IMG/VR virus record: IMGVR_UViG_3300045988_165047
From: a virus
DNA length: 64,000 nt
Reading direction: 5' to 3' (one strand)
Within the stretch, counting starts at the first letter, position 1, and every line of letters starts with the position of its first letter. Positions 1,474 through 31,653 of the stretch are shown in pieces. A program made the position numbers and the translations under genes. A model generated the notes under the pieces. It did not search any database. It was not told the origin of the DNA and saw nothing but the letters and a program-made list of their open reading frames with translations.

Positions 1474-3138
1474 TTAGTATGAACTTCTTCTAATAGTGTT
1501 TATTTCGTCAATAACTCCAGCGTAGAGGGGGTTATCAAGGACTTCCATTTCTTCCTCAACCTCTCCACCGACTTCTCTTGAGGCGGCTAGACTCATAAGT
1601 GCCGCACTATCCACGAAGTCGTCAAAGTACCCATCCGCCTTCTGACACACGAGGTAAGGTCCGTTAAAGAACTTGGTGCAGTTCAGCATCTGTTCCTCAA
1701 ACTTCTGATACTCCGTTGTAGCTCTGACGCTAGGGTTTGCTGGAACAATAAGTCGTCTAGTCTGAATATCAGATATGAAGTTAAACCACATATCTGACTT
1801 ACTCTGCGTTGTGAAGGTGTAAGGAACAATGTCCACATACTCACCACAAGCGTAAGAAAGTCGGTCTACTACTGCTCTACCTACCCCCGTATAGTCTGCA
1901 AAGATAACAGATATATTGTACTCTATGATAGCGTCCATTATGATATGGTGTTGCGTCTCATAGTCCGCTGTACCGAGAGCTAGCCACGCAAGTATCTGTT
2001 TGTAGGGCTTACCGAATGGGTCTTCCTCATCATTCCATACTTTCGCTATCGTTAAGACTGTCTCAGCAGGAGATTTTGCAATATCAAGCCCAGCCACGAC
2101 AAAGTCATTAACTCTGGGTTCTTGTAGCCCCAGCTTTCTATTGATGATACGAGCATACTCCTTATCGGTAAGAAGCATACCGCTCTCAACGTCCCATATC
2201 AGAGCAAAAGCAAGGCGGAAGGCTTGGGAGTCTTCTCCCCATCGGTCTCTCTTACGGAGAATGTCCGCTTCATAGTTAAGGTGAAAGCGTTTCCCGTCTA
2301 TGGAGAACTGCTTCCTTCGGTCCTTTATGATGTCCTTGTAGTTGTACTCATAGTGTTTGCGTGTTAGAGGGTTCTTACTCTTAGCGTCCTCCTTTCGGTT
2401 GTTCACAATCTCGTAGTAGAAGTGGTTCTTGGTTGTACCCGTAGTTCCCACCTTAACAAGAGTACCTGCCGTAGAAGAAAGCATAGGCTCAATAGACTTA
2501 CTCACAATAAGGTCATCTACGTCCTGCGCTTCTTCAACTATTACAAGGTCATACGTCTTTGATTCAATCTTACTCTGCTTACTCGCTACCTGTCCTGCAA
2601 GGAAAGACCCATTAGTAAGCACGAGTTTAGCGGAGCTATCAAGCCCTACATCAATATCGGGGTCGTCCATAACCATTTCAGCGTTGGCAGACCTAAGACG
2701 GCTAAGCGCACGGGAGTACGTAGTAACCACCTGGTCAGACTGCGGAGCAAACAACCCTACACGGAAACCATCCTTGAACTGCTCCAAGTCTGGAATGAAC
2801 TTAGCAAGAGCTGGTAATAGTACTACGAGGGTGTCAATAACGAACGCCATAGCCTCCGATTTACCACTCTGTCGGGAGAGAAGGACGGTCTTAACGTCCC
2901 CCGAGAAGGTAATTACGGAGTGAATAATCCCATAGGCGATAGCCTCTTGGTAGTCATACAGACTAATACCCGTGAGTATCTTCCCAAACTCCATTATCTT
3001 GTTGGTGACATCGTGGGCATCAAAGGACACCTCTTTGGATATAACGGACAGGTCTATATCGTCAATACTTCCTCCTGTCGCAGGGAACACATATCCCTCG
3101 TCTGCTACCTTAGTTTGATTTTTCTTCTTTTTAGACAT
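1474..3138 (-). CDS. terL: Terminase large subunit (TerL)
   Basis: ORF 1474..3150 trimmed to the ATG at 3136-3138 (MSKKKKNQ). Walker A-like LLSRQSGKSEAM, Walker B-like DLVIVEEAQD, and a C-terminal nuclease-like half (GLDIAKS, FADYTGVG). The portal lies directly downstream. Confidence 0.9.
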   Translation of the reverse strand: MSKKKKNQTKVADEGYVFPATGGSIDDIDLSVISKEVSFDAHDVTNKIMEFGKILTGISLYDYQEAIAYGIIHSVITFSGDVKTVLLSRQSGKSEAMAFVIDTLVVLLPALAKFIPDLEQFKDGFRVGLFAPQSDQVVTTYSRALSRLRSANAEMVMDDPDIDVGLDSSAKLVLTNGSFLAGQVASKQSKIESKTYDLVIVEEAQDVDDLIVSKSIEPMLSSTAGTLVKVGTTGTTKNHFYYEIVNNRKEDAKSKNPLTRKHYEYNYKDIIKDRRKQFSIDGKRFHLNYEADILRKRDRWGEDSQAFRLAFALIWDVESGMLLTDKEYARIINRKLGLQEPRVNDFVVAGLDIAKSPAETVLTIAKVWNDEEDPFGKPYKQILAWLALGTADYETQHHIIMDAIIEYNISVIFADYTGVGRAVVDRLSYACGEYVDIVPYTFTTQSKSDMWFNFISDIQTRRLIVPANPSVRATTEYQKFEEQMLNCTKFFNGPYLVCQKADGYFDDFVDSAALMSLAASREVGGEVEEEMEVLDNPLYAGVIDEINTIRRSSY

Positions 3139-3172
3139 AAAAATACCCAAGAGGCTTGTTGCCCCTTGGGTA
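3139..3172 (-). terminator. Stem-loop plus U-run abutting the TerL start codon
   Basis: On the minus strand this reads TACCCAAGGGGCAACAAGCCTCTTGGGTA followed by TTTTT and then ATG. The stem is 8 bp (3144-3151 / 3165-3172). Confidence 0.55.
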
Positions 3173-4342: not shown

Positions 4343-4870
4343 TTATTTATTAGAATAATTCATAGTTCCCTTGTCAAGCCTCCACTCTTGGAGTCTCTTC
4401 AAAAACTCTTCGGTCATCTTGTACACTGGTGGTTCCGAGGTGTCCACCCAGCAGTTGGGAGTCTCATAGAGTCTGATGTTCTCAAGAGTTAGCAACTTCT
4501 CAGATTTCATCAACTCCTTAATGATGACAAACAGCTCGGCGCTGATATTTTCAGCGGTCGGGTTGCAGTACCCCTCATTACCGAGACCCATAGGGAATAA
4601 CCTCCACCCCTCTTTCTTACACATATCAATTAACCCCGTGTCTTCTGGGTTAAAGATACCTGCGTGGTCCAAATGCTCGTCAATCCACTGACAAGCGATG
4701 CGCTTGATTTCCTTGAAGTCAATAGCGTACCCGATTTCCTCGGTCTGTTCAAAGGAGAACGTTATCTCCACCTTGAACCTATGCCCGTGAAGGTTGTAGC
4801 ACTTGACCCTCTCATTCATCACTCTGTGAGCCGCATCAAACTCACAAATTCTAGTTATCGTCTGTCTCAT
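4343..4870 (-). CDS. queD: 6-carboxy-5,6,7,8-tetrahydropterin synthase (QueD / PTPS family)
   Basis: ICEFDAAHRVMNERVKCYNLHGHRFKVEITF carries the Cys-x3-His-Gly-His PTPS/QueD signature. The start is trimmed to the internal ATG (MRQTITR) that abuts the stop of the upstream ORF. Confidence 0.85.
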   Translation of the reverse strand: MRQTITRICEFDAAHRVMNERVKCYNLHGHRFKVEITFSFEQTEEIGYAIDFKEIKRIACQWIDEHLDHAGIFNPEDTGLIDMCKKEGWRLFPMGLGNEGYCNPTAENISAELFVIIKELMKSEKLLTLENIRLYETPNCWVDTSEPPVYKMTEEFLKRLQEWRLDKGTMNYSNK

Positions 4871-4871
4871 T

Positions 4872-5102
4872 TTAAGGATGCTTCTTAGTTGTTCTTTTGT
4901 AGGGGAACACGTCTCGGATATTGTGAGAGAAGTACGTCCCCTTACTTTCGGAGCGAAGAAACTCACCCCACACTCTGAGAGATACACCGCTATACGTGTA
5001 CACCCACGTGGGTCTGTTTATGAACACCATAGTCAGCTTTAGTGTACGTCTATCGTACTCGGCTGATTTTATGTTGGAAGAGTTTACTAACATAGTCTGC
5101 AC
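4872..5102 (-). CDS. KTSC-domain-like small protein
   Basis: 76 aa. The pattern SSNIKSAEYDRRTLKLTMVF...WVYTYSGVSLRVWGEFLRSESKGTYFSHNIR resembles the KTSC domain. Confidence 0.55.
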   Translation of the reverse strand: MQTMLVNSSNIKSAEYDRRTLKLTMVFINRPTWVYTYSGVSLRVWGEFLRSESKGTYFSHNIRDVFPYKRTTKKHP

Positions 5103-7595: not shown

Positions 7596-8363
7596 TTATC
7601 GCTTTTTGGGTTGAAGTTGTCTTAGTTCTTCTAGGTAGTCCCACAGAGCAGAGTCTATGTAGCTTACCTTGCAAACACTGGGGGTATTATTGAGGTGTTC
7701 GCTAACGTAGGTAGCTACCTCTTTAACCTCTTCACGACGCTGTTTTTTGGTCGTTGGAAGTTCCCTTTCAAGGATGTCCTTTACAGCATCCCACGCTACG
7801 ATGTTTGCCCGTAGCGTTCTAAAGTCTTTTGGGGTAAACGTGTTACCCACGTACTTCTTGACAAACTTAGTAAGTTCATACGCCGTTATGTCAAAGATAG
7901 TTTCCGCTTCATAACCATTAAGAAGCGCACGAACCTGCTTAGAGAGCGTTTTGTCTAGTTTGAAGGAGTTTTCAACCTGCTTCTTTCCAAGAAAGTGCAG
8001 GTATACAACACCACGTTTTACCTCCACGTGCTCACGAAGGAGCGTAGTAAGCCCATACGTTTGTACAAACTCAGGTTCTTTAGAGCTGTTTGGGTGTGGC
8101 TGAGTAACATAGCCCTCAGAGCTACCTTCGTTACCTATACGGATACCCGTGTACATCATCAGTTTGCACGCTAGTGCGAGTCTTGCGGTGTCAGAAGTGT
8201 TCCGACCACGCTCAATCATCCCATCAAACTTCTCAGAAAGCTCGTCAAAGCGATAGGCTAGCTTGACGGAGCGGTTAAATTTGTCCGTATTTCTCCCCTT
8301 TAGGGAGCGGAAAAACTTATACTCCTCCCCACACAGCTCTATAATCGTAATTGTTTTAGCCAT
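7596..8363 (-). CDS. Type IB DNA topoisomerase (poxvirus/bacterial TopIB type)
   Basis: Ordered TopIB catalytic motifs are present: TGIRIGNEG, LHFLGKKQV, TPKDFRTLRAN and LNNTPSVCKVSYID. The last carries the active-site Tyr in an SY(I/V) context. Confidence 0.8.
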   Translation of the reverse strand: MAKTITIIELCGEEYKFFRSLKGRNTDKFNRSVKLAYRFDELSEKFDGMIERGRNTSDTARLALACKLMMYTGIRIGNEGSSEGYVTQPHPNSSKEPEFVQTYGLTTLLREHVEVKRGVVYLHFLGKKQVENSFKLDKTLSKQVRALLNGYEAETIFDITAYELTKFVKKYVGNTFTPKDFRTLRANIVAWDAVKDILERELPTTKKQRREEVKEVATYVSEHLNNTPSVCKVSYIDSALWDYLEELRQLQPKKR

Positions 8364-8774: not shown

Positions 8775-9470
8775 CTACCGCTTTTTGAGGGGGTAGAAAT
8801 TAGAGAAAGAGAATAGGAAGAGGTCATTTTCAAGAGCAGAGCCCTTTTTGAGCTTGAAATTCTCAAAGTCACCATTAAACGTGGCTAACTTTTTCAGCTC
8901 TTTAAGAGTCTTCTTATCAAGTGCACTCTCATACTTAGAGTACTCAAGATTGAAATTCACCGACATACCGCCTCGCCACCATACGTTGTCTTTAGCGTGG
9001 TTAGCGTATTGATACGCCGACACCCAGTTGGCTGCACGGAGGAGAGCTTCGGTTTCGGGGTCCTCTTGAGCGGTTGCACGCTTCTTGTCACGCAAACGAT
9101 AATACAGCGTATTATCAAGCTTTTCAAGTAACGTTTTAGCATCATCGCTGAGGTAGCAGTCGTTGTCCCAATAGCCTCGTTCTCTCAAGTGTATCATTTC
9201 AAAGGACTTCGTAATGGAGTCCATGACTTTGTAACCATTGAGACCGAGTTCCTTTAGGGTACTTCTTACCTTAGTGAGTAAAGCCTTGAGTGACTCGTCT
9301 GGAGTTTCCTTTTTGGGGACACTCTTAGTTACGAATGTCACAGGCTTTTCTAGAAGGTTGTAGCGTTCCTTTGGGAAATTTCCCTTGTTCTTCTCCACAC
9401 GGATGCAGAACATTAAGGTAGTTAGCGTCTCGTGGACACCGACAAACACTCTTACGTCTTCTGTACGCAT
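8775..9470 (-). CDS. Tandem paralog A (unknown function)
   Basis: 231 aa, clearly homologous to 9592..10254 (VFVGVHE..LMFCIRVEK...LRAANWV). A TATATTTG box lies 5 nt before the ATG. Confidence 0.75.
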   Translation of the reverse strand: MRTEDVRVFVGVHETLTTLMFCIRVEKNKGNFPKERYNLLEKPVTFVTKSVPKKETPDESLKALLTKVRSTLKELGLNGYKVMDSITKSFEMIHLRERGYWDNDCYLSDDAKTLLEKLDNTLYYRLRDKKRATAQEDPETEALLRAANWVSAYQYANHAKDNVWWRGGMSVNFNLEYSKYESALDKKTLKELKKLATFNGDFENFKLKKGSALENDLFLFSFSNFYPLKKR

Positions 9471-9591: not shown

Positions 9592-10254
9592 CTACTCCTT
9601 TTCAAGAAGATAGCTGTTTAAGGATGAAAATAGGTAAAAATCATCGTGCAGGCGTGATTTTGGCTTAAGTTTGAAAGAAGAGAAATCTTTTTCAAACGTA
9701 GCCATCGTTTTCAGCTCAGCAAGGAGAGCTTCATCAAGTTCCTTGCGTCGCTTAGCGAGTTTTTGCTCAGACAGCCCCATTGCCCCCTCTTCAGAGAGAC
9801 ACTGATGCTGTTTAGCATAAACCCAATTAGCCGCACGTAGAATGGCGTCAGCCCCTGGGTCCTCGGATGCGTACTCCAACTCATGCTCGTCAATATACGT
9901 AGATAACGCATAACGGAGCTTTTCAAATAGAGAAGCCCCTTTACCATTATAAGCATACGCATCAGGTCTTCCTAGGTCGTACAGAGAGCCATAGATTTCA
10001 TAATCTACGTCTTCTGTGCTGTACCCCTCCAAACCAAGTTCTTTTAGGGTATTTTGTACCTCGGAAAACATGAGCCTGAGCGTTGGGAGGTCATCCTCCA
10101 GCCTAGGGATGGTCTTAGTGACGGATGCGATGGGCTTTTCCTTGAGGTTATAATACTCCTCTGGGAAACGGAACTTCTCCACACGAATGTGGAACATTAG
10201 TCCCTCATGCACCTCGTGGGCACTAAGGAACACCTTTACATTTTTGGTACTCAT
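9592..10254 (-). CDS. Tandem paralog B (unknown function)
   Basis: 220 aa, homologous to 8775..9470. A TATAATTG box lies 4 nt before the ATG. Confidence 0.75.
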   Translation of the reverse strand: MSTKNVKVFLSAHEVHEGLMFHIRVEKFRFPEEYYNLKEKPIASVTKTIPRLEDDLPTLRLMFSEVQNTLKELGLEGYSTEDVDYEIYGSLYDLGRPDAYAYNGKGASLFEKLRYALSTYIDEHELEYASEDPGADAILRAANWVYAKQHQCLSEEGAMGLSEQKLAKRRKELDEALLAELKTMATFEKDFSSFKLKPKSRLHDDFYLFSSLNSYLLEKE

Positions 10255-10327
10255 AATTCAATTATATTTAGGTTAGTATTTACTACGCTAAATCGTGTAA
10301 GCCGCTTGCTTATCACCAGTGGAGGGC

Positions 10328-10343
10328 GTTACACACGTGTAAC
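10328..10343 (-). promoter_or_regulatory. Palindromic element GTTACACACGTGTAAC in the leader of paralog B
   Basis: 7-bp arms. It shares its core with the 9541-9578 palindrome. Confidence 0.4.
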
Positions 10344-10418
10344 ATTTACCACTACATTGACCATCATAACCACTACTTCTGTCACTTAGTCGTTATTGGT
10401 TGGTCATTGATTACATTA

Positions 10419-10449
10419 CAAAGATAGTAACTTTTATTGAACTAACAAA
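10419..10449 (-). promoter_or_regulatory. Near-consensus Bacteroidota promoter TTTG-N19-TATCTTTG
   Basis: The minus strand reads TGTTTGTTAGTTCAATAAAAGTTACTATCTTTG. It is the first promoter-like element leaving the gene-free region and points at paralog B. Confidence 0.6.
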
Positions 10450-10531
10450 CATTTTAGGGCGTTTGGGTGAAACTTTTTTATAAGTAGTTAGTTTATAAGC
10501 ACTTACAAGTAGAAAATTTTTTCATCAGCAA

Positions 10532-10607
10532 GGGCAAACGGGGTACATACGGGCAAAAGTAGGGGCAAAGCAAGGGGTAAAACGGGGCGTTTTGGGGGCG
10601 TTTGGGG
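10532..10607 (+). repeat. Eight phased G3-5 tracts (about 10.3-nt period)
   Basis: G-tract starts at 10532, 10540, 10551, 10562, 10574, 10584, 10594 and 10604, separated by A/T-rich spacers. Confidence 0.8.
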
Positions 10608-10697
10608 CGTTAGGCACGTTGCACCACGGGGCATATTTATACGTAGGCACACACGTATGCACACGCACGAGGGAGCAGCGTTGTACACTTACATAGT

Positions 10698-10798
10698 ACA
10701 CCACCACACGAACGAACCACCACACCACCATATCAAGACACCACACCACAGAAGCACACCACGACACCACCATACCATACCACCACTATACCACCACA
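10698..10798 (+). repeat. About 100-nt CA-rich low-complexity tract (CCACC/ACACC words)
   Basis: caccaccacacgaacgaaccaccacaccacc...ataccaccacaat. The track ORFs that overlap it translate to low-complexity sequence. Confidence 0.8.
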
Positions 10799-10881
10799 AT
10801 AGTACGCACATATACACTAACTAAAAATGTCCATGTTTCTAATTTCTATTTTCTAATATAAGCGGACTACCGCTGAGTAAC

Positions 10882-10908
10882 TTCAATTCATCCCCCTCTT
10901 TAAGGGGG
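10882..10908 (-). promoter_or_regulatory. Stem-loop followed by TGAATTGAA (partial copy of a conserved leader element)
   Basis: The minus strand reads CCCCCTTAAAGAGGGGG-ATGAATTGAAG. Compare 28072-28105 and 53995-54028. Confidence 0.35.
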
Positions 10909-11340
10909 TGGGGAGCAACCACTAGCACAAGGGTGCCATAATTCTGGGCATTCTTTGCCACGCACCCCAGGGTCTCCCTCCATAAAAACACCCACACGGG
11001 GGTACCTTTGGCGTTTTCGTTTACTTTTCATCCGTTACCTATATGGTATTATGTATGTTCTTACTCTTATAATAGTATTATAGGTGCTTATTAAGCGTTT
11101 CACCGCCGAAATTTTTCCTTTCTATGCCACGCAGTGTGCTCCATCAGCATATATTATATACTTATACTATGATATTACGCTTACCTAACTACATTTTCAT
11201 ATTGCGCCCAATGATTTCCCAGCGCTTTTACCGCTTTTATGCCACAAACGCTATTACCTAAGTTAGTTTTCAGATGAATTGCATACATATACTACTTACC
11301 TACTACTATAATTCAGCTCTTATACTACTATTATATAGCT

Positions 11341-11375
11341 CTAACTACATAAATAAGTGTGCTAACTACATAAAT
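11341..11375 (+). repeat. Direct repeat CTAACTACATAAAT x2, 21-nt spacing
   Basis: Copies at 11341-11354 and 11362-11375. Confidence 0.8.
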
Positions 11376-11414
11376 GAGCATCTAATTTCAGTTTTACTCC
11401 GCAATTCTAGTTGC

Positions 11415-11447
11415 AAAACTACTCTACCTACAAGTAAAACTACTCTA
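11415..11447 (+). repeat. Direct repeat AAAACTACTCTA x2, 21-nt spacing
   Basis: Copies at 11415-11426 and 11436-11447. Confidence 0.8.
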
Positions 11448-11637
11448 TGCGCCCAAAAATTAGAATGCGCTTTGTAGTTTACGAGCATCTTGAGCTAAAA
11501 TTAGTAGTGTATCTACGTGTAATAGTAGTTACCTAATTAGAAAATTAGATTTCTGAGCAGAAAAATCATTCTAATCTGCGTGTAAATTAGAATGCACCAA
11601 GAAAAATTAGAAGAAATCTAGTTCAAGACCGCAGTTC

Positions 11638-11664
11638 TATATAATATATATAATATATTATATA
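11638..11664. other. 27-nt A/T-only tract (possible DNA unwinding element)
   Basis: tatataatatatataatatattatata, embedded among the 8-mer repeats. Confidence 0.5.
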
Positions 11665-11897
11665 GTTTTCTCCGCCAAATTGCAAACACAACTTCTAATT
11701 TCAAATTACGCACGCTAATTTCAAATTGCGCCTTGTAGTTTTTAGACGCACAAGCTAATTTTTGGGAGCAAATTCTAATTTCCGCAGTAGTTTTTAGTTG
11801 CTGTTTCTAATTTCAGTACGTAATTCTTATTGTAGTTATACTCTAACTAGAAAACTACGCATCTAATTTCAAATTAGAATTGCACATACAAATTACG

Positions 11898-12065
11898 CTA
11901 GTTTTTCTGCGTTGAAAACTAGAATTAGAACGCTAGAAACTAAGTTACTCTAATTAGAAACTAAATTAACCTAGTTACTAACTAAAATTAGAACGCCGAA
12001 ATCTAAAATTACGCAGTTAGAAACTAAAATAACGCCTCTAAAAACTAAATTAGCGCCGATTACAA
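11898..12065 (+). repeat. Eight tandem degenerate 21-bp units (iteron-like)
   Basis: Units start at 11898, 11919, 11940, 11961, 11982, 12003, 12024 and 12045. Each begins CTA(A/G). Examples: ctagaattagaacgctagaaa, ctaaaattagaacgccgaaat, ctaaaattacgcagttagaaa. Confidence 0.8.
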
Positions 12066-12314
12066 TGAAAACCCATTCAGAAAAAGTACCTCTAATTTCG
12101 TAACTACCTGATAATGGGGTGTTTGACCCCCTATAAAAACGACACTTTGATACACAAAAACCACCTAAAAACTACCTAAAAACGCTATAAAATGCAGTTA
12201 CTCTAATTTCTAATTACTTACACGTATATACCTATATAGTAATAAGCAAACCCTTCGCAAACCCAGTGGCTACGGGCTTTTCGCTATGCCAAAACCCAAA
12301 GGGCTTACCCACAC

Positions 12315-12389
12315 ACATAGTTACATACACTTTGTTTCGCCTATGTACATAGTTACACACGTATATAAATACCCACGTACATAGTTACA
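12315..12389 (+). repeat. Direct repeat ACATAGTTACA x3, 32-nt spacing
   Basis: Copies at 12315-12325, 12347-12357 and 12379-12389. Confidence 0.8.
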
Positions 12390-12640
12390 TATAGATAAAC
12401 ACGCATTTAAGGCCGCGAATCTGTTTCCTTTTCAGCACCGCTTTCTGCGTATTACAACCACAACCGCCGATTTTGTTATTGTTCTATTGGTTGCACACAG
12501 CTACCTTATACAGATGTTATACTATTACTACCTAGATATAGAGTAGATTTTGCGCCCTTTTGTTACCCTTACCGCCTATAAGCAGTTTTACCCGCCAAAA
12601 TTTTACCCGCAACAAATTGAATTTCTAGGTTGCATATACC

Positions 12641-12665
12641 AAAAACGAAAGGGAGCCTGTCTCCC
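12641..12665 (-). terminator. Rho-independent-type terminator
   Basis: The minus strand reads GGGAG-ACAGG-CTCCC followed by TTTCGTTTTT. It lies about 95 nt after the stop at 12760 and closes the long upstream operon. Confidence 0.6.
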
Positions 12666-12759
12666 GACAAACTCCCTTCCTACTACTAATACTAACCCAT
12701 TATAGGCAGGTTCATCACTCCTACCTATGAGTTTACCACAAAGATTTTATGTGGTATTT

Positions 12760-16434: not shown

Positions 16435-16718
16435 TGTCGTATGATTTCTTTTAAGTAGATGGTGTCCCCTCCCACACTAACAGCGGTGGATAGTGCTTTT
16501 AGCAGGACCTCCATCACGAGGGTTTTTTCAGTAGATGATGATGGCCTTTGAATGTTGTTGCACCCAAAGGCGTAATGTGGTGTAGTGACCTTTGCGAACA
16601 TCCTCCAGCAGGTGTCTTGCTTAACACCCCTAACGGATATGCCTATGGTAGCGTTGCTCCTTTCAAAGAGGAACTCCCCAGCACCCAAGGTGTTGAGGAG
16701 TACCACTACGTCCATCAT
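16422..16718 (-). CDS. Hypothetical protein
   Basis: 98 aa, tiled. Confidence 0.5.
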   Translation of the reverse strand: MMDVVVLLNTLGAGEFLFERSNATIGISVRGVKQDTCWRMFAKVTTPHYAFGCNNIQRPSSSTEKTLVMEVLLKALSTAVSVGGDTIYLKEIIRQWSQ

Positions 16719-17383
16719 ATTTTGATAGCTTGTAAGAACTCAGCCCTAAGAGGTCCATTAAAGAATACCCCACCGAGCTTAGAGGTTAGTGTATCACCGC
16801 CCTCGTCTTCCTTACCTCTGAAACTAACACAGAAATGTTCCGCCTTGATGACAACGGCAACATTCTCAGTCTCTAAGAGATAACTAAGCGTGTGGTAAAT
16901 CTGCTCTACTAAGCGTTCTTGTACCTGGGGTCTTCGGCAAAAGAACTCCACAACCCTATTAAGTTTAGAGAGTCCAATTACCTTCCCCTCGGGAATGTAC
17001 GCTACATAAGCCTGACCACGAATGGGCATCCAATGATGCTCACACATAGACTTCACACTGATGCCTCTCTCAAGTACCATACTACCATACTCCATAGAGT
17101 TACCGATGGTCATAATCTTGGGGAAGTTTTTGTAGTCCAATCCCCAAAATAATTCAGAGTGATACATCTTAGCCAATCGGCGAGGTGTCTCCATAAGAGA
17201 CTCATCTGTTAGGTCCAGACCAAGATTATGGTGCAGTAGGCTGAACAGCTTTTCAGTGTCTTCTCGTAGAGTATCCTCCTCCTTAATAAGGCGCACCATA
17301 GGTGTCTCCACTCCCATAGACTTTAAGTGTTCGTGAACCTCTCTACCTAATGCAAGGTCGGTTTTGTTTTTGTCTAATGCCAT
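16715..17383 (-). CDS. folE: GTP cyclohydrolase I (FolE)
   Basis: SMCEHHWMPIRGQAYVAYIP and RRPQVQERLVEQI are canonical FolE motifs. 222 aa. Confidence 0.9.
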   Translation of the reverse strand: MALDKNKTDLALGREVHEHLKSMGVETPMVRLIKEEDTLREDTEKLFSLLHHNLGLDLTDESLMETPRRLAKMYHSELFWGLDYKNFPKIMTIGNSMEYGSMVLERGISVKSMCEHHWMPIRGQAYVAYIPEGKVIGLSKLNRVVEFFCRRPQVQERLVEQIYHTLSYLLETENVAVVIKAEHFCVSFRGKEDEGGDTLTSKLGGVFFNGPLRAEFLQAIKI

Positions 17384-17673: not shown

Positions 17674-17861
17674 TAGTCACGATGGATGCCTAAATCAATG
17701 AGAGCCGTTTCAAGGTCTTCCTTGAATGCTTCGGACGTTAGTTCTCTCATTCGGTTAGCTACTCTCTTTACTAGTTTGTCACTGATAAGTTCAGAAGGAA
17801 CGCCAGCCTCTAAAAGGTCATCCTCTCCGAGGGAAGTTACCACAACCTTTTCACTATTCAT
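17673..17861 (-). CDS. Hypothetical small acidic protein
   Basis: 62 aa, tiled. Confidence 0.45.
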   Translation of the reverse strand: MNSEKVVVTSLGEDDLLEAGVPSELISDKLVKRVANRMRELTSEAFKEDLETALIDLGIHRD

Positions 17862-19062
17862 AGTCTCTAATAGTTATTGCGGAGGGGAAACGAGGTATGC
17901 CATCATCGGATAGTCCTTGGTACTGAATGGTGGCTACCTTACCGATAATCTCCTCCTTGTTTGTAAAGTACTTAGTGCGCAGTTCTCTAGTCCCTTGTGG
18001 TTTCACATTGAACCTTCCACCTGCGCATTCACATACAAAGATAGCAGTTCCTTCGTCTCTACCTGATGCCTCTACTACATCAACTATTGGGAACTCCTCA
18101 GTATCAAACCTTTTCAGCTTGATTAGGTCATTGCTTCGGAACCCAAACTCATAAAGACCTCGGGTGTTTCGGATGATTGCCCCTTCGTAACCTTGTCCTA
18201 CGAATTGGTCGTGTTTGTTCTGAACCTCCTCAAGCGTATCAGCGGTATATGTGGGACTAAGGTACACGATAGAGTCCTCGGAGACCCCCTTGAAGTCCTC
18301 ACACAAACTCTTCTGTCGTTCAGAGTAGTTAGCACCCTGAATAGGTTTATCATAAACTACAAACCTAATTTTAGAGGTGAGTTCAGATACCTTCTTGACC
18401 GCAGAGATTATCTCTTGGAACGTAAGCTCCTTGTGGCAGTACAGCTCTCCGTCTAAGGGTAACTTGTCAAGGTTGTCCTTAGCCCACTTTTCAAGGTGGG
18501 GAATTTTATACGGCTTCCCATTACGTGATAGGATATGCACACCCTCGTCATCTGAGAAGATAATACAGCGCACGCCATCATACTTGGGCTGTACGAAACA
18601 AGGGAACACAATCTTCTGCTGAGAGAAACCACAAGCAAGCATAGGCTTCATTCTCCCATTTGCGTCAGTGTTGTGTTCTCCCTTTGGAGGTTCATAAGAG
18701 AACCCTTTATCGTGCAACCTCTTTACGAGAGACTCTGCGTCAAACACCGCCTTCTCTTCGGGAGACTTATAGTTGGACTTTCCTTCGTTCACTCCCTCTG
18801 TGTAAGCATACCTATCAAAGGTGCTCTTTCCACCGATGGTCATTATCTTCTCAGTCTCCAAAATAGGAACACCTCCTTGCATATATACACGCACGTAATA
18901 CGTGCGTACATTTCCATTTTTAGAGAGGGCATAAAGTGGGGGAGAAGAGTACAAGCCACCACGGGGCAGAATGGGGTCCTTACACGTAGGCTGTTCCTCC
19001 TTGATTGTTGTTCCCTCTAGGGCATCACCCGAGGGGAAAAGTATGGGTATAAGTGTTAGCAT
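17854..19062 (-). CDS. ATP-dependent DNA ligase
   Basis: Nucleotidyltransferase motifs in order: I QPKYDGVRC (adenylated Lys), III LPLDGELY, IV EGAIIRN, V LIKLKRF. A C-terminal OB-like region follows. Confidence 0.9.
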   Translation of the reverse strand: MLTLIPILFPSGDALEGTTIKEEQPTCKDPILPRGGLYSSPPLYALSKNGNVRTYYVRVYMQGGVPILETEKIMTIGGKSTFDRYAYTEGVNEGKSNYKSPEEKAVFDAESLVKRLHDKGFSYEPPKGEHNTDANGRMKPMLACGFSQQKIVFPCFVQPKYDGVRCIIFSDDEGVHILSRNGKPYKIPHLEKWAKDNLDKLPLDGELYCHKELTFQEIISAVKKVSELTSKIRFVVYDKPIQGANYSERQKSLCEDFKGVSEDSIVYLSPTYTADTLEEVQNKHDQFVGQGYEGAIIRNTRGLYEFGFRSNDLIKLKRFDTEEFPIVDVVEASGRDEGTAIFVCECAGGRFNVKPQGTRELRTKYFTNKEEIIGKVATIQYQGLSDDGIPRFPSAITIRDYE

Positions 19063-19684: not shown

Positions 19685-20164
19685 TTAAACCAAATTCTCG
19701 TACTTGCTCCAATCAATGGACGCTCTAGCCTGCCACCATTTCTGATAGACCCCCTCCACAAACTTTAGTGTGGTGAGGTAGAACTCCGTGAACTCCTCAA
19801 GCGTTGTAAACTCGTGGAATTGTGGTTCCGTATCTGTACCAAACTTGATAGTCGTAGGAAGGCTTTTACCTTGGGTCTGATAGGCGATGTCGTAGAGGAC
19901 CTTGTAGTTCAGTTTATCTTCGTTAGTGAGGTTCACAAACAACCCCTTCCACTCAAAACCCCGAAGGACCTCATCGTCCGTCATCGTCTTATACCAATCA
20001 ACCACCACTGCCTTTATCTGGTCAATGGTAGGTTTATAAGGGAGCACCGCTTGAATTAAGTCGTTTCCGAATACCCAAGAAAGTATCCACTCACCTTTTA
20101 CCTCGTTATAAGGAAGTAGAGAGGGGGTTGCCCCCTCTACTCCTTTAGTTACTAAGTATTCCAT
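19685..20164 (-). CDS. Fibre-associated protein (possible DUF4376-like chaperone)
   Basis: 159 aa, immediately after the giant fibre gene. DWYKTMTDDEVLRGFEWKGLFVNLTNEDKLNY resembles DUF4376. The function is inferred from position. Confidence 0.45.
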   Translation of the reverse strand: MEYLVTKGVEGATPSLLPYNEVKGEWILSWVFGNDLIQAVLPYKPTIDQIKAVVVDWYKTMTDDEVLRGFEWKGLFVNLTNEDKLNYKVLYDIAYQTQGKSLPTTIKFGTDTEPQFHEFTTLEEFTEFYLTTLKFVEGVYQKWWQARASIDWSKYENLV

Positions 20165-23100
20165 TATAAGAAATCTGTTATGTTAATGAACTCCTGTACA
20201 CTCTTCACCTCACGGATTTCTCCAGTGAACATAGGTCTTACCGCTTGTTCGGTGTTGGAGCTTTCTAGGATTTCAAACCATATTAAGCCTTTATCGTGGT
20301 GTCTATGTCCTATATAAATAGGAGAATCTGTATCTCCAACGCTCCAAATCTTGGAACCTGTGGTATAGAACGTAGAATTAGAACCACCTGAGAATTGATA
20401 TGGTGTAAGACCTATGATGTCCATGTACTTTTCGTGTCTAACTCTAAGTATGTTGGTCTCGTGGTTACGAACAAACCTCCATAAAGTGGTTTCTCCATTC
20501 TCTCTGCGAGCCTTGAAAATGGGGGCATCGCCATTCATGGACACCGAACTTCCTGTAAGAGCACCCCACCAGCCAGAGTCGAAGTACTCGTACCCCATCG
20601 TCTTTAGGGCTTGCTGACCTACCCATTCTCGGGATATACCACTAACCTTCCAGAAACCCCAATCTCCTGATGTACCATTCTTACGGACGTTATCTGACAT
20701 ACCACTTTCAAGGCATCTTCCCATAAAGTGTGCCCAATTACTCTCGCTCGTAAGTGACCCATGGTCCCAGCTCGTTATTGAACCGTCCCTCACATACTTC
20801 AAGTTTACTATATTCTTGTACTCCTCATAGGATATTATTTCCATACCCCTACTCGTCATAAGTGTCTCAAAGCTCTCCCTGTTTCTACCCGTAACGTGTC
20901 TATTAGACTGAATAAAATCCTTGAGAACTCCCGAGCCTATCTTCCCATTGACAGAGCATAGTTTGAAAGCCCCTACAAGTTTCGCCTTATGGCGAACCCA
21001 ATCAGTCTCTACATCTACTATATTACTCGTATTAGACACTACGGCGTATATGTCGGGAGAAGTCGCCCTAGGTGCCTGATTAGGTATGGAGAAGTAACAC
21101 CATTCTGCCCCATCTGGGATGTCAAGTACTACATACATTCCCTCTTCAAAGTACGAAGAATTGGTAGAAGGGGAGTAGGACTCTACAACCCCCCCATCTT
21201 CTCTTACTATGATTACACCTTCAGCGTTGCCAGATGTTGGAACCCTTACCTTCTTACCTCCTCGTACTTTAACCCTATAAGCTACTCTTGACGTGTCTTG
21301 AACTATGGAGTTTTTAGTAGTGCTTCCGGCCACTACCTTTTGGTTCACAAGCTCATTACCGCTACTACGAAGTTCTTCAAGAGTGAATTTAGTCGCATCT
21401 GGAGCGTCTGGTTTTACCCCGTACGCATAGCAGAAGTACTTCTTCATACTCTTTACGTCATTTACCCCCTTGTACCAATACTCTGGCTCATATATCATCA
21501 GGTCTCCCTGTGAAAGGTCTACCGCCGCATCGGTACAATTACTCTGTATCTCGTTGTCGTCATACTTCAAGAAGGTATCTTTTCTAAGACGGCAGATACT
21601 CATAACCCCCTTAGACTTTCGCTCCTGCTTAGCTAAACAAGGGAAGCGAGCGTTAAGGATAGCCGCAATATGCGCAGAGGGCTTATAGGCATTACCGAAC
21701 TTATACCCCGTCTTGTTGTCAAGGTTGGAGAGCTTAGCTGGAGTTGCCACCGCATCGTCAAGCTCAACAACTGTGTACTGAGGCTGACGAATGTTAAGCT
21801 CATCAAAGCGTTCTCTGTACTTCTCAAACACAGCTTCGTCAAGGTACTTAGTGAGCTGGTAATTACCTAGGAGCTTACACTTAGAAACGTTCTCCGTTCC
21901 ATCAGCGTTGATACCTCCAAGACCCTTAGCATACCAAGCCTCAAGTTCAGACCCGTCACCCGTAATAGAGCCGATATTGATACGGACATACTTCAAGGAG
22001 TTATTACCCGAAAGTATTTCCTTGAGGAGGTCCGTCCCCGATAGCTTGGGGCAATTTTCAACTCTAAGACCAACAAGGCGACTAACGTCCCCAAATACAA
22101 TACCCGCTCTCGTGATGTTTGGTAACGACACAAGAGACAGAGTCTGGTAGTTATTAGGGAGTTTCACCACCTTGACAGCGGAACTTTCTCCAAAGAGAAT
22201 AGACGAAAGAGAGTTACACCCACGTGCATCAACCTCTTCAAGTCTAGAGCACCCTGTTAAGCTAAGTGAAGGAAGGTTCTCATACCCATTAAGAGCGAGC
22301 TTTCTGAGCATAGGCAGGTTATCTCTAATGGCGAACTCTGTCAGACCATAGGACTTTCCTTCCTTACCCATAATCAGTTCCTCAAGAACGGGCATATTGG
22401 GGATGTCCAAATTCGTGAAGCCACCCCAATCAGAGAGGTCAAGTTTCGTTATCCACTGCCCACCATATAGATGGAAGATGGTACCGATATTAGCCACCTG
22501 AGTGTAGCGGTACACGAACTCTTCTCCCTTCTGTACCTTCTTATGAACCATAGAGGTTCCCTCTCTCTTGAACTCAAGATAGAAGTCTCTACCCGTTACG
22601 GCACGAATAGTAGCACCTGCTTCGGAGTTACCCTTCCAAGCGATGTCCGTTGCAGTGTACTGACCCGTAGCCGCCCAAGCATCAAACAGAGCCATTCGGT
22701 TATAGATGAACCACTCTCTGTGCGACTTTCTGTTCCCCTGCATACTTTCAAGGTAGGAGTACGTCTGCGTAGTAACTCTCCCGTCACGGATAACAGAGAC
22801 ACCCTTAGTCTTGGGGTCAATGTACTTTCTAAGAGAGTCCACATTGAATACTCGCTCACAGAAACGCTCACTCTGTTCGTCATTAAACATACGAAGGATG
22901 TCCGCATTAGAGAGTTTTGCTCTGATACGGAGATATGCCTTCTTGATTTCATCGGGGAACTGCTCACGCAGGTTCTTCCACAGAACACTATCGTGCCCAG
23001 CGAAAGCATAGACGGTCTTTCCTCCTACGGACAGCTCTGTGTCAATAGTCTCCTCGTTAATGTCCCAATGATAACGAAGTCTCCCGTCATTTCGGACACC

Positions 23101-26100
23101 TAGGATAGTATCGTTATCATAGAAAATCATATAGGCGAGTACCTTGTCACGCTTAGGCTCGTAGAAGAAACTCATCATCATATTCTTCACACGCTGGTCA
23201 CAGCAAGCGAACATATCCGTGAACACATAGTAGTCACAGAGGTAGTCTATATCAAAGTAGTCACCAAGCTCTCTCTTAAACTTAGTTTTTCTCTGAGTAA
23301 TTGCACTTGCAGAAAGCCCACTAGCGAGAGTGTCCGTAGAGTGTACCCACTTGACAAGAGGCTCAAGATACTTAGGTTTCAGCGTCCCATCAGCATACTT
23401 AGCGTTTATCCCCTTGTCATCGGGGAAGCGTGCTTCAAACACCTTCATCCAATTAGGAGTACCATCAGATGCCTTAGCGTCAAAGTCAGAGTCCTTAAAG
23501 CTACCCATTGGGTAGTCGTTATTAAGGAACTCCCAACATTCAGTAGGGTTCTTACCGCCAAACTTAGTCGTTACCCAAGTAGCATCGTGGTATCCAGGAA
23601 TACCTAAGAACCCGAAGACATCCTCGGTGCTCTTGTCGTTGTTAAAGTTGAACTTCCCTAGGAACTTAGGAGTCTCATCTACTGAACCACGATAGAAGAG
23701 CAAGCAAGGCTCTCCGTCCACGGTGGTACGCACATCCTTATCGTAGCGTTTTCTATCTACGTGCTTCTGAGGAGGAGTAAGTTCCCCTGCCTTAATGAGA
23801 GTGTTGTGGACAAGGCGAGCCATCCCCGTATTATGGGAGCTGGAGCTTTCAGCAAAGTCCGCTTTAAGACAGAAGCAATTTACGTCTGCACCAGCAGGCA
23901 TACCATCCTTAGCAATTCGGAACGTCCACTTACCACTTTCTCTGAGAGTACCACCTGCACCATTCTCATCACAACCTACAAACAACTGCCCCAACTTTTT
24001 CTCCTTAGAGCTATCGTAGGTGTAGATGCGGTAGTTCTTAGTGGGGTAAGCAAGAGACGAAGTTCCTTGAAGAGCTATACTCCCACCAATAAGACGGAAG
24101 TTCTGTTCGGGGACACCACCCTTCACAAAGGTGAAAATCTCAGATACGTCAAACTTCGTCTTCTTGTTATTATTCACTGCCGCATAAAGAGCGGTAGGCA
24201 TCCCACTTGAGTGAGTGCCTGTAATGATTACAACACGAAGTCCAGCAGGAGCACTTTCAACGCTAATGTCCCCTTCGGAGTTAAGGACATCATTCTGCTT
24301 GTACTCTGCGATAAGGTCGTCCACCTTGGGCTGACCAAGAATGTACAAGGAGAGTACCTGGTCATCAGTTAGGAACGTATTGTACGCTCTAATAGAATTA
24401 ACATCTATCGTAGCCTTCGTTGAACCTATCTTAATAGGCATAGGAGTGGCTTGATAGACACTATCAGTAGGACCTCTCTGCACCCCTGCGCACATTACCC
24501 CATTGATATAGAGGTAAACCATTTCAGAGTTATTCTTCTCGTACTCTGAAGACTCTGACTTACTTTGTGGGAACGACACAAACGTAACCTCGTAGGGAAC
24601 GTCTGAAGCCATCTTCATAGCGAGTTTGCTATTACCGCTCGTGATTAGCCTAGCTTCACTAGGAGTGATTTCAAACCCCGTTCCTCTAGAGTCTACGCAA
24701 GACACAACTACTGCATCGTGGTCTACTACCTCACTACACTTGTATCTGATAGAGAACGCAAACGCATTAGTTGTTGGGAGTACCTGCTGAAGAGGCTTGT
24801 AGTTTACTACTGATATAGCGTCCCCCTTGTGACGGAGTGCTCCGTTAATCCAACCATCACCACCAAAGTTGAAGCCTCTAAAGTCAGTAGTTACTCCGTT
24901 GTACGTCCAAGAGTCTCTCTTAACATCAGAGTTGCTTCTACCTTGTGCGGATAAGTGTAGCTTCAAACCATCGGTGGGTTCCGTAAGGTTAAGGTCCGTC
25001 TTACCTACCTGTAAGGTATAGGTGTACGTGGTATCGCCACAAGCAATTTTGCAGGAGCGTTCCCCTTCCCTATTACTACGTAACTGAAGCTCATTGTCCA
25101 CGAAGGAAACCTTAGCAGAAGCAACTACCTCGTCACCCTCATATACCGCAACAGCCGTTGGAGTCTCAAGAGGGTTGTACACAGCATAGCTTAACGTATA
25201 GGTGTCAAACTGCTTAGTGACCAATTCAGGTCTCTGTCCAGCGGTGTAAACTCTCCCGTCCGCATAGTCAAAACGGGTACAAACAATAGGTCTGTTAATA
25301 CCCTTAGTGACTACGGCTACATCAAAGTAGATGCTGTTTGACTTAATAGTCCCACCGCCTAGAACTTCAAGCTCCGCAACTAATTGTACAGAGTTAGAGC
25401 CGTGAGACATTCTGCTTGTGTCAATCGTAAACGCCCCGTTAGCCGAGGATGCGGTAATAGTTCTGTCTTCGGTGGGTGCGCCATTGACGTAGCAACGAAG
25501 AACCTTACTACCACTACCCGACAAAGCATAGGGAATGGACAAGGACTGACCTCTCTCCGTGAGAGTGGAGATAGAGTATGAGCTGGTAAGTTTCAGCTGA
25601 ATTACATTCACCGTCCACGAAGCCGAAGCAACCTGTCTATCACTACCCGAGCCAACCTCTAAGCGCACTCGGATATTATTAGCACCGACACCCACAAACT
25701 TAGTAGCGTCAATCTTCTGTGTGCTCCCAGCAGGTACGTTTGATTCAAAAGAGTACGAAGTAGCCCCTCTAGTAATAGTTACGACAGCCTTAGCAGGGTT
25801 ACCCGTAGTGTCCTTGGTCTCCGTATTGATTTGGTCATAGGAGTAGACAAGTGCAACCTCATCCCCAGCCTTTACATTAAGGTTGGGAGTTACACGAGTA
25901 AGGACAATCTTGGTTGCACTTTGAGAACCTCCACCGCCACCTGTGATGGGACCTTCGGTAGAGATTTCTTCCCCAAGCATATTGTTCACTACAATTCGGT
26001 AGACCTTATCAGCGCCTTCCCCTTCTTCCTCAACCTTGATACCACCAACGGCTTCCTTCTTGAGCTGTTGGATAGCGGAATGAACCGCCCCACTCTGAAC

Positions 26101-28140: not shown

Positions 28141-28866
28141 TTATAATTCCCGTGGGACAACTAGTTTAGTAGCTTCCTCCTTGTACTTATCATACATAAC
28201 CGCCATCTTATGCGTCTGCATGTTTAAGTACGCCTTAATCCCGAGGGAAGAGAGAACCTCATCAGTGTGCATATATTGCATAAGAGCTTGGTAGGTAATT
28301 GCGGACCCCCAAAATACCCCAACGGCAAGATTAGTCTTGCTGTATTTAAGGTAGCTTTCTGCAAACTCCTTAAGGCTAGTTAAGTCGTCTTCGTCATCTA
28401 CCACAACTTTCACGAAGTCGTCCTCATTAAGCAGGTGGTAGTTGTTGTATTTCATTCGTAGGTTCTCCCCCGTGCTGGGAAGTTTGTAGTCTACGATGAA
28501 TGATACATTACGGAAGTGTCTGTAAGGGAGAATATCCACACAACCACTAGTCTCAATGGCTACGTGATACCCCTTAAGAGTAGCGATTCTAAGGAACTCG
28601 GAAACATCTTGGAGTAGCGGTTCCCCTCCTGTAAGACAGATAAGGTTATACCCATAAGAGTCTACTGACTCTAGAATATCCCACTCATCCATTGGGTGTC
28701 CGCTTTTACCTTCAAGTGCTTCGGGTGTATCACACAGAATACCCTTAGTTTTTAGGTAGCACCGAAGAGGGCACTTACTAAGTCTAACGAACACACAAGG
28801 CGCTCCAATCCCGAACTTGTTTACCTCGCCCATAAAGGCTGGGTAGATAGTTTGTACGTTTAGCAT
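28141..28866 (-). CDS. queE: 7-carboxy-7-deazaguanine synthase (QueE, radical SAM)
   Basis: N-terminal FMGEVNKFGIGAPCVFVRLSKCPLRC...CDTPEA aligns with the QueE cluster loop. The SAM-binding motif CLTGGEPLL is present. The Cys spacing is atypical (see findings). Confidence 0.8.
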   Translation of the reverse strand: MLNVQTIYPAFMGEVNKFGIGAPCVFVRLSKCPLRCYLKTKGILCDTPEALEGKSGHPMDEWDILESVDSYGYNLICLTGGEPLLQDVSEFLRIATLKGYHVAIETSGCVDILPYRHFRNVSFIVDYKLPSTGENLRMKYNNYHLLNEDDFVKVVVDDEDDLTSLKEFAESYLKYSKTNLAVGVFWGSAITYQALMQYMHTDEVLSSLGIKAYLNMQTHKMAVMYDKYKEEATKLVVPREL

Positions 28867-30019: not shown

Positions 30020-30992
30020 ATCTACTTACGTACTTGTTCTTGAGTTTCAGGTTTGCCATCTTTATGAACTCCTTTCGGAATCCGAGCCACCCCGTCAAGT
30101 TCATATTATTGACAGCGTATCGGTCTTCTTTCTTACCGATTACTCCTTCATAATCAACTCCTGCCGCAATAAGTTTCACTTTACGCTGTTTACGGATGCG
30201 CTCCTTCTTCTTGTAATCTAAGGTACGGAAATTCTTCCCATCGTAGTCGTAGGTAGTACCATAACGAGTACCACCAAGCCACGTTGTGGAGTCCACCGAA
30301 AAGAATGGGTATCTCTTACACAACTCAAATGCTGTCCAAGCAAATCCGTGTATTCGTGTCCCGTACTTATTCGCAATGGTGGCTACTTTATGAGCGTACT
30401 CTTTGTCACGTTGGTTTACTCCTACGTACTTATACCGCTTACAATAGTACTCTAGGTTGGTAAACTTCAAGTCGTCATTAGTTCTATGTGCAACATAGAC
30501 TATTTGCAACCCTTCGGCTTCAAGAGGTTCAAAGTATTTCTTATTCCACTTTCGTACTATCTCCTCCCCAACCACTTTATCAAGGTCAAGGTTAGCGGCT
30601 ACGAATATGTACTCCTTGTGTTTGCGCAACCAAGCTACATACTCCTCAAGGTAAGGTAGCCAAAACTCTTCCGATGTGAGTTTATCGTACTCGGGGTGGT
30701 CCTCATGAAACTGACCCATAAAGGAGAACGCTCCAGAGTCCGTCATAAAGATACCATCCTGTTCGTACACCTCTTTAAGTAACTCCTCAAAAGAGCGAAG
30801 AGACTTTCTCAGATAGTGGTAAGATACGAGGATTTCTTTTATGCCGAAGCGTCTAAGAGTTCTAGCGTCCTCAATAGAAGAAGCAGAGAAAAACACAACC
30901 GCTTTACTCCGCCTCTTATCGTATTCTAAATTCTTAGGTATCAAGGAGAGTCTGCATTTCGTTAGTGAATACCTCAGTAGAAATAGTCCCAT
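29991..30992 (-). CDS. dpdA: DpdA-like 7-deazaguanine DNA transglycosylase (TGT superfamily)
   Basis: ILVSYHYL...FMTDSGAFSF resembles the DpdA N-terminal region (LFVSH...LDSGGF). It is flanked by queC and queE. The true start may be a downstream TTG (30944) or GTG (30896), because the ATG at 30992 overlaps queC by 59 nt. Confidence 0.7.
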   Translation of the reverse strand: MGLFLLRYSLTKCRLSLIPKNLEYDKRRSKAVVFFSASSIEDARTLRRFGIKEILVSYHYLRKSLRSFEELLKEVYEQDGIFMTDSGAFSFMGQFHEDHPEYDKLTSEEFWLPYLEEYVAWLRKHKEYIFVAANLDLDKVVGEEIVRKWNKKYFEPLEAEGLQIVYVAHRTNDDLKFTNLEYYCKRYKYVGVNQRDKEYAHKVATIANKYGTRIHGFAWTAFELCKRYPFFSVDSTTWLGGTRYGTTYDYDGKNFRTLDYKKKERIRKQRKVKLIAAGVDYEGVIGKKEDRYAVNNMNLTGWLGFRKEFIKMANLKLKNKYVSRYERKHPKKD

Positions 30993-31653
30993 CAGAGATT
31001 TCTAAGAACTCTGCTAACCATTCCTTACCAGCAATTCTAGGGTCCTCGTCAAATAGCTTAGGGTCAAACATCCCGTTTACTGCGAGTGCGATGGCTTTCT
31101 GTACACACGATTTGCACTTCCCACACCCCTTAATACTATGTGCGTCATAGCATGTTCTTAGAGTTGGGATATGTGATACGTCTATGTCTCTTGAGATTGC
31201 TTCTGCGAGCATTTCCCCCTTAGTGTAGTCACGATAAGGAGTTAGGACCTTTGGGTGTACACTATCCCACGTGTCGGGAATATCTCTAAAGTAGTAGTAG
31301 TTCTGAATGAACGAAGTTAGTCCATTAAGAACATCCTCCTGCTTATCATAGTGCAGGTCATAGTGTGTCACTCCCAACAATACCTCATTAGAGAACTCAA
31401 AGGCTCTAAGTAGGTAAAAGATATTTCTCATAGGAACAATAGCATTAGCCTGTTCCAGAGATTTGAAATTGAGAGTGTGGTCCACTATAATGGAGTGTCC
31501 ATTAAGAAGACCCATACCTTTGAACTTTTCAAGTTGCTCAAGCTCTCTCTGTTCATAGCGTGCGCCCGATGCGAACATTAAGAGAGTATCTGGGGCTTCC
31601 AAGAGCCTATATAATTCAGAGTCCAACCCCGTGGAGTATAGTAGTACGCTCAT
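30934..31653 (-). CDS. queC: 7-cyano-7-deazaguanine synthase (QueC)
   Basis: PP-loop-like LLYSTGLDS at the N-terminus and the C-terminal zinc motif GCGKCKSCVQK. Confidence 0.85.
   Translation of the reverse strand: MSVLLYSTGLDSELYRLLEAPDTLLMFASGARYEQRELEQLEKFKGMGLLNGHSIIVDHTLNFKSLEQANAIVPMRNIFYLLRAFEFSNEVLLGVTHYDLHYDKQEDVLNGLTSFIQNYYYFRDIPDTWDSVHPKVLTPYRDYTKGEMLAEAISRDIDVSHIPTLRTCYDAHSIKGCGKCKSCVQKAIALAVNGMFDPKLFDEDPRIAGKEWLAEFLEISDGTISTEVFTNEMQTLLDT

Follow-up and report, generated by a model that had tools for sequence, protein, structure and literature searches.

Within a 64,000-nucleotide stretch of viral DNA (IMG/VR record IMGVR_UViG_3300045988_165047; the whole stretch is called the window here), we found an array of short boxes, the 8-mer TCTAATTT and its reverse complement AAATTAGA. 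The array is real, strongly nonrandom, and conserved, and it occupies the control region of an uncharacterized family of gut phages. Judging from its sequence, the boxes are very probably bound by a sequence-specific protein, whatever the purpose of that binding; tentatively, the array may be an iteron-type replication origin or an origin-control array. The window belongs to a tailed gut phage whose host group is Bacteroides, and according to lists of open reading frames (ORFs), its minus strand carries every gene. An identical ENA contig (ERZ27263099:k119_37222) supplied the 12,805 bp that the window lacks, and joining the two gave a source genome of 76,805 bp; a near-identical 76.8-kb genome is present in several independent human metagenomes. 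The family consists of uncharacterized Bacteroides phages; it is represented in IMG/VR by at least 40 contigs and in culture by a single relative, BS162P1 (OP172706), whose terminase is 69% identical to that of the window phage.

The box occurs 15 times exactly in the 76.8-kb genome, and 14 of these copies fall within positions 10838 to 12209. Exact plus-strand boxes start at 10838, 11381, 11694, 11774, 11806, 11862, 12091, and 12202, and exact minus-strand boxes start at 11457, 11542, 11584, 11604, 11871, and 11985. An initial annotation had reported these 14 copies, and every position matched exactly, as did the one-mismatch variants it named (GCTAATTT at 11714 and 11754, TAATTAGA at 11951) and an imperfect palindrome, GCATCTAATTTCAAATTAGAATTGC, at 11860 to 11884. 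The sole further exact copy in the window lies at 8797 on the minus strand, and the remaining 12.8 kb of the rebuilt genome contains none. By chance, 3.4 copies are expected per 64 kb. In 1,000 dinucleotide-preserving shuffles of 10838 to 12209, the expectation was 0.19 copies against the 14 observed; the most frequent 8-mer in the shuffles, whatever its sequence, averaged 3.4 copies and never exceeded 9. When up to one mismatch was allowed, 27 boxes lay in a 2.5-kb gene-free gap compared to 30 in the other 61.5 kb, corresponding to densities of 10.8 and 0.49 per kb. Among repeated 8-mers in the window, no other cluster is as strong as this array or even comparable to it. When aligned, the sites share a core, T-TCTAATTT-(C/T), that spans about 10 bp; the flanks are weakly conserved.

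The boxes are arranged in blocks of like orientation around a short palindrome made only of A and T (Table 1). Only one 40-bp stretch of the 64 kb is less stable than this palindrome, which lies between the six minus-strand boxes of Block A and the six plus-strand boxes of Block B. Block A, directly to the left of the A/T tract, contains the dyad ATTCTAAT-N10-ATTAGAAT at 11567 to 11594. The first four boxes of Block B (11694 to 11774) form a 20/40/20-bp ladder with units of about 20 bp, and Block C holds a 21-bp periodic array (11934 to 12049) of 5.5 units of TAGAAACTAAAATTACGCAGT. Blocking by orientation was modestly significant for sites with up to one mismatch (runs test, P = 0.02) but not for exact sites only (P = 0.12), and helical phasing over the whole array, where orientations are mixed, was not significant (P = 0.05 to 0.08). 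Most sites are single, and only two or three of the approximately 27 form dyads (11862/11871, and TCTAATTAGA at 11534 and 11949). A hairpin telomere or concatemer junction was considered and rejected, as the inverted repeats lack one common center.

Table 1. Positions of the box array, its surroundings, and selected genes in the window.
Feature	Position	Strand	Remarks
Core box array	11381-12216	both	13 exact TCTAATTT/AAATTAGA and 11 one-mismatch copies
Single box	11381	+	
Block A	11457-11611	-	six boxes: 11457, 11498, 11534, 11542, 11584, 11604
Pure A/T palindrome, 27 bp, TATATAATATATATAATATATTATATA	11638-11664	none	candidate DNA-unwinding element
Block B	11694-11869	+	six boxes: 11694, 11714, 11754, 11774, 11806, 11862
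Imperfect 25-bp palindrome (TCTAATTT-C-AAATTAGA)	11860-11884		junction of Blocks B and C
Block C	11871-12054	-	six boxes: 11871, 11916, 11922, 11951, 11985, 12047
Block D	12091-12216	+	three boxes: 12091, 12202, 12209
Outlying box triplet, 7-bp spacing	10838-10859	+	TCTAATTT, TCTATTTT, TCTAATAT
Gap	10255-12759	none	2.5 kb; sole large region of the genome without a convincing gene
Intrinsic terminator	12647-12680	-	15-bp stem, then T run; closes upstream operon
Best full Bacteroides-type promoter of the window	10419-10449	-	TTTG 10449-10446, 19-nt spacer, TATCTTTG 10426-10419
DnaB-like replicative helicase	47878-49158	-	phrog_19, E = 2e-39
DnaC-like helicase loader	49155-49817	-	phrog_50, E = 5e-25; weak IstB and DnaA ATPase domain matches
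253-amino-acid protein, candidate replisome organizer/origin binder	49762-50523	-	just upstream of loader gene
104-amino-acid MerR/HTH_17-like helix-turn-helix protein, second candidate binder	50778-51092	-	Pfam MerR_1, 22.2 bits (cut-off 21.6)
Large terminase	1474-3150	-	
Poxvirus-type topoisomerase IB (TopIB)	7596-8363	-	Pfam Topoisom_I, E = 9e-20
ATP-dependent ligase	17854-19062	-	
UvsX-like recombinase	42144-43307	-	
DNA polymerase	43307-45154	-	
Primase	45971-46927	-	
Baseplate wedge protein	57899-59410	-	

Comparison with a sister strain (L003; IMG/VR contig 3300045988_156346), which is about 94% identical across the gap, provided evidence that the boxes are under selection, with cores unchanged while spacers diverge. 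None of the 112 box core positions differed between the strains, while the 797 neighboring positions carried 47 substitutions and 21 gaps (Fisher's test, P = 0.0025; 1.6e-4 with gaps). The sister strain also has a 275-bp insertion (L003 5034 to 5308, near 11850 in the window) just to the left of the palindrome at 11860. The insertion consists almost entirely of extra AATTAGA boxes, all in one orientation, and adds about 10 boxes. Such variation in copy number between close strains, together with the partly tandem layout, could reflect a nonfunctional, self-expanding minisatellite-like repeat in an AT-rich spacer. However, the box cores are invariant where the spacers diverge, the boxes are irregularly spaced on both strands, and related boxes persist in lineages whose flanking DNA no longer aligns, making this explanation highly improbable.

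Similar boxes recur across the phage family. An AT-rich gap of 0.85 to 2.4 kb lies 1 to 2 kb upstream of the TopIB gene in about 25 related contigs. Among 13 genomes examined, the 7-mer WAATTAG was at least 19-fold enriched in the equivalent gap of nine, which represent six lineages whose TopIB is 51 to 67% identical to that of the window (100% in the near-identical L003). Two clades have TTAGTTA instead, and two show few boxes. The genome of BS162P1 contains 32 copies of WAATTAG, 12 of them inside its 2-kb gap, and boxes beside a TA-rich tract recur in this phage as well as in two IMG/VR relatives (L011 and L104). The window phage shares with BS162P1 and the IMG/VR relatives the order of terminator, gap, and promoter, followed by the TopIB gene 1 to 2 kb downstream, along with AT-richness, WAATTAG boxes, TA-rich palindromes, and a CCCTTAAA box. 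BS162P1 differs in its preferred box (TAATTAG[A/C] compared to AAATTAGA in the window phage) and in its number of WAATTAG copies (12 compared to 23), and the flanking DNA of the two phages cannot be aligned. A search of IMG/VR for the exact 17-bp palindrome returned, besides the sister strain, only single chance matches in unrelated contigs. The gap itself is essentially identical in four independent metagenome assemblies; compared with GenBank phages and PLSDB plasmids, its DNA had no similarity, close or distant.

Other motifs accompany the boxes in these gaps. Eight of 10 relatives have a single CCCTTAAA(TG) box in the gap (gaps including those of L001, L092, L104, L091, L090, and L087). 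Its copy in the window, TTTAAGGG at 10899 to 10906 (plus strand), lies within the hairpin CCCCCT-CTTTA-AGGGGG (10895 to 10915). A GGCGG/CGGCG box with an A/T-rich tail is found in the window at 11100 to 11116, 11670 to 11680, 12461 to 12477, and 12591 to 12605. This box recurs in the gaps of all relatives, always in gene direction and often beside TA-rich palindromic elements of the TATATTATATA type; the two add a second and a third class to the motifs that the gaps of the family share. On the plus strand, a quadruplex-prone tract at 10530 to 10612 contains eight runs of three to five Gs. It is followed by a CA-rich tract at 10715 to 10786 that repeats every 21 bp and reads as GT-rich in gene direction, and GT-rich tracts occur at the equivalent place in relatives.

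The gap separates the end of one gene block from the first gene of the next. It contains only short ORFs (82 amino acids or fewer) that look spurious, its GC content is 32 to 39% compared to about 45% elsewhere, and when the window is ranked by stability in 200-bp stretches, the three least stable all fall within the gap. No cluster of DnaA boxes was seen, and a search of the literature on the gap of this phage family found nothing. An Rfam scan of the gap yielded only two miRNA matches, which fell below threshold, lay outside the array, and are ascribed to chance. Because both strands carry boxes and no known RNA family matches, the boxes are unlikely to act as RNA. The first two genes past the gap (8775 to 9470 and 9592 to 10254, minus strand) are paralogs without a known family; they are 43% and 50% identical to one single gene of L003.

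The suggestion in the initial annotation that the boxes are binding sites gained support from their strong over-representation on both strands, the lack of a convincing gene or Rfam match, the invariant cores, and the family-wide recurrence. Its more specific proposals, a classic dimer operator and a site related to the host -7 promoter element, did not hold up. In the direction of transcription, the gap begins after the terminator (12680 to 12647) and ends at the promoter (10449 to 10419), which drives the first gene past the gap with an ATG at 10254. We identified promoters by the Bacteroides primary-sigma consensus (-7 TAnnTTTG, with a -33 TTTG 19 to 21 nt upstream). A sigma-70-type scan gave fewer matches than in shuffles, and Bacteroides promoters do not follow that consensus. 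No box in the TTTG/TAnnTTTG scan overlapped a -33 or -7 element, and the nearest recognizable promoter (-7 box at 10426 to 10419) lies 0.4 to 1.8 kb from the array. With so few dyads and no overlap with a promoter, the boxes were rejected as the operator of a dimeric repressor.

A broader regulatory role would be for a phage helix-turn-helix protein, such as the MerR-like one, or a host protein to silence, insulate, or time transcription from the array. Such a protein would act at the junction of a long operon end and an early promoter through a repressive filament or loop, not a single operator. The phage does encode a helix-turn-helix protein, the array has a terminator on one side and the strongest host-type promoter on the other, and the few dyads (TCTAATTT-C-AAATTAGA at 11862 to 11878; TCTAATTAGA) are of the kind that dimeric helix-turn-helix proteins prefer. 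Yet the sites number 27, far above known operators, and are mostly single, and the distance to the promoter is considerable. We regard regulation of this kind as unlikely.

The core TAATTT has TA..TT in common with the -7 consensus, which had led to the proposal that the boxes titrate sigma factor or RNA polymerase. However, none of the 14 exact boxes completes TAnnTTTG, and identity with a primary-sigma promoter was rejected on this ground. The two matches to TAnnTTTG in 10838 to 12209 do not overlap a box, while the host-type promoters of the phage itself keep the final G, mostly as TATCTTTG. Furthermore, sites on both strands without downstream genes do not fit promoter use. We consider titration of this kind barely credible.

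The tentative reading as an iteron-type origin or origin-control array draws on several features. The array consists of clustered copies of one short sequence adjoining an AT-rich candidate unwinding element, and opposed boxes flank that meltable A/T center. Local units of 20 to 21 bp, the change in copy number between strains, and the presence of helicase, loader, and primase genes in the genome also favor it, as do the strong enrichment of the boxes, their setting in AT-rich, easily melted DNA bounded by a terminator and a promoter, the unchanged box cores, and the recurrence across the family. From this combination we infer protein binding, the likely identity of that protein, and replication initiation as the outcome. 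Specifically, one sequence-specific protein would coat about 0.8 kb of the gene-free region, building a large protein-DNA complex around the 27-bp palindrome. A phage initiator would bind the boxes, with the 253-amino-acid protein as the best candidate and the MerR-like protein as the second. Stress from binding may then open the easily melted A/T tract, onto which the DnaC-like loader would place the DnaB helicase, and the more distant blocks of boxes might serve as extra or copy-control sites.

The gene for the 253-amino-acid protein occupies the position that corresponds to those of lambda O and SPP1 G38P, just upstream of the loader gene, and the protein is conserved across the family. It had no sequence or profile match in Pfam, PHROG, or PDB. 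Its AlphaFold model (predicted local distance difference test score, 84.5) has helix and strand elements at the N terminus and a helical C terminus. Foldseek searches of PDB and BFVD with this model returned no significant match; winged-helix matches were weak, as was a hint to a "phage conserved hypothetical protein C-terminal domain." No repeats were found between 49000 and 52000, in or near the gene, so the target of the protein must be elsewhere. The small genes flanking the gap were considered as sources of a box binder, but they are not conserved in relatives that have the box.

Several observations weigh against the origin reading. The fold matches of the 253-amino-acid protein are nonsignificant, and neither this protein nor the MerR-like one covaried with box type, as judged by whole-protein identity to relatives. 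The gene of the organizer candidate is 38 kb from the array, and for this reason, along with the lack of repeats around that gene, we rejected a lambdoid origin proper, in which the origin lies in or beside the initiator gene. Known phage origins are also far smaller and more regular than this array of about 27 sites, and less mixed in orientation; their iterons, inside the O gene, number 4 in lambda and 6 in Stx (Shiga toxin) phages (PMC7466680). Neither the phasing nor the modest orientation blocking described above helps its case. A rival origin-like layout lies at 55689 to 55760, where a TATCTTTG promoter, a 32-bp pure A/T tract, and a GC palindrome resemble the promoter-plus-unwinding-element arrangement of T4 oriF and oriG. 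The A/T tract there is the least stable 40 bp of the window and lies just upstream of a superfamily 2 (SF2) helicase gene. Finally, GC skew at third codon positions (GC3) shows no step at the gap. The detrended cumulative GC-skew curve bottoms out near the replication genes and peaks at the gap, which would make the gap a terminus under the usual convention. This curve lacks a clean V shape and is confounded by one-way transcription and by the composition of the gap itself.

The skew maximum also bears on the idea that the array serves in partition, like a centromere, traps replication forks, or, during carrier-state infection, acts as a decoy for a host DNA-binding protein. The opposed orientation blocks resemble groups of Ter sites and parS/centromere arrays. 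Against this, a scan of about 70 proteins revealed no ParA, ParB, Tus, or RTP-like protein, the skew signal is weak and confounded, and the array has four alternating blocks, not two opposed groups. Roles of this type are very unlikely.

Alternatively, the gap could hold a packaging or genome-end signal, that is, a pac site or terminal repeat, with the boxes acting as sites for the terminase small subunit or for end processing. Short repeat arrays flank the T7 terminal repeat, and the P1 pac site has clusters of hexamers. Genomes of the T7 and T5 types have their ends where the gap lies here, at the "start" of a map whose genes all run one way and immediately upstream of the early promoter, and the GenBank record of BS162P1 begins within the equivalent gap. 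Yet that genome closes into a circle across the gap with a 54-bp overlap, and break points of metagenome contigs are scattered, not concentrated in the gap. Some 7 kb, with about 10 genes, separate the gap from the terminase gene, beside which no small subunit was recognized. On balance, a packaging function is improbable.

A further view connects the array with the topoisomerase. The window phage encodes a TopIB of the poxvirus/eukaryote type that is conserved throughout the family. The CCCTTAAA box contains CCCTT, the pentamer cleaved by poxvirus-type topoisomerase IB, and the TopIB gene always lies 1 to 2 kb downstream; the box could be a specific target of the enzyme. The array might be not an origin but a new kind of element that organizes the phage chromosome, on which a protein polymerizing over the alternating blocks would act as a fork trap or terminus or, with the CCCTTAAA box and TopIB, would resolve or process replicated genomes. 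It is the skew maximum that hints at the fork trap or terminus role. We consider such an element a rather remote prospect.

Elsewhere in the window, the large terminase subunit has 558 amino acids compared to 907 in BS162P1 (L001 9334 to 12057). Because the match between them splits in two, the BS162P1 protein may carry an insertion, such as an intein or homing element. Genes for GTP cyclohydrolase I (16715 to 17383), QueD/PTPS (4343 to 4987), QueC (30934 to 31653), and a QueE-like radical-SAM (S-adenosylmethionine) protein (28141 to 28866), all on the minus strand, make up a 7-deazaguanine pathway, suggesting that the phage DNA carries modified guanines. Also on that strand are a MoxR-type AAA+ ATPase (39694 to 40917) paired with a CobT/VWA-domain protein (37889 to 39697) and a SpoVS-like small protein (31939 to 32211), all conserved in BS162P1. 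An ORF of 2,546 amino acids (20164 to 27804, minus strand) matches PHROGs 14959 and 24896 of unknown function and has no counterpart in BS162P1.

For phage biologists the array is not a surprise, but it is a useful experimental handle. Together with the A/T palindrome, it is the clearest cis-acting landmark of the family and gives access to the origin or control region and to the protein that reads the boxes. It could be used in engineering gut phages, building shuttle replicons, and titrating phage replication. In addition, the switch between WAATTAG and TTAGTTA among clades offers a natural experiment on the joint change of protein and DNA-site specificity.

Among known systems, dense short repeats in a gene-free "start" of the map near early promoters are shared with T7 SRL/SRR, the P1 pac hexamers, and the T5 injection-stop region. 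In contrast to these, assemblies close into a circle across the gap. Inverted initiator sites flank an AT-rich center in archaeal origins with origin recognition boxes and a DNA-unwinding element (ORB/DUE), in the core origin of SV40 and polyomaviruses, and in herpesvirus oriS, whose initiators are AAA+ or superfamily 3 (SF3) helicase-type proteins. The window array likewise has opposed boxes facing each other across a short palindrome of A and T only, but it has more sites and extra blocks, and no AAA+ or SF3 protein is linked to it.

Lactococcal and streptococcal phage origins of the c2, sk1, and Sfi21 types are gene-free AT-rich repeat regions away from the initiator gene, and cloned copies of them titrate replication factors. 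The array resembles them in its AT-rich, gene-free setting, in its direct and inverted repeats, and in its distance from the presumed initiator gene. It differs in having no sequence similarity to them and in belonging to another host phylum.

With the iteron origins of lambda, Stx phages, and plasmids P1, F, RK2, and pSC101, the array shares a clustered short sequence beside a meltable AT-rich tract, some units of 20 to 21 bp, and a helicase loader and DnaB encoded in the same genome. Iteron number varies among relatives in those systems too, as between lambda and the Stx phages (PMC7466680; reviewed in PMC4980987). Here, about 27 sites over a core of about 830 bp compare with 4 to 9 over 100 to 250 bp, the conserved box core is only 8 to 10 bp, and blocks of alternating orientation flank the A/T tract on either side. 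Furthermore, the presumed initiator gene, for which no initiator homology was found, neither contains nor adjoins the array. The type of element, an iteron-like or operator-like array, is already known, and it is the size and block-wise layout that are unusual.

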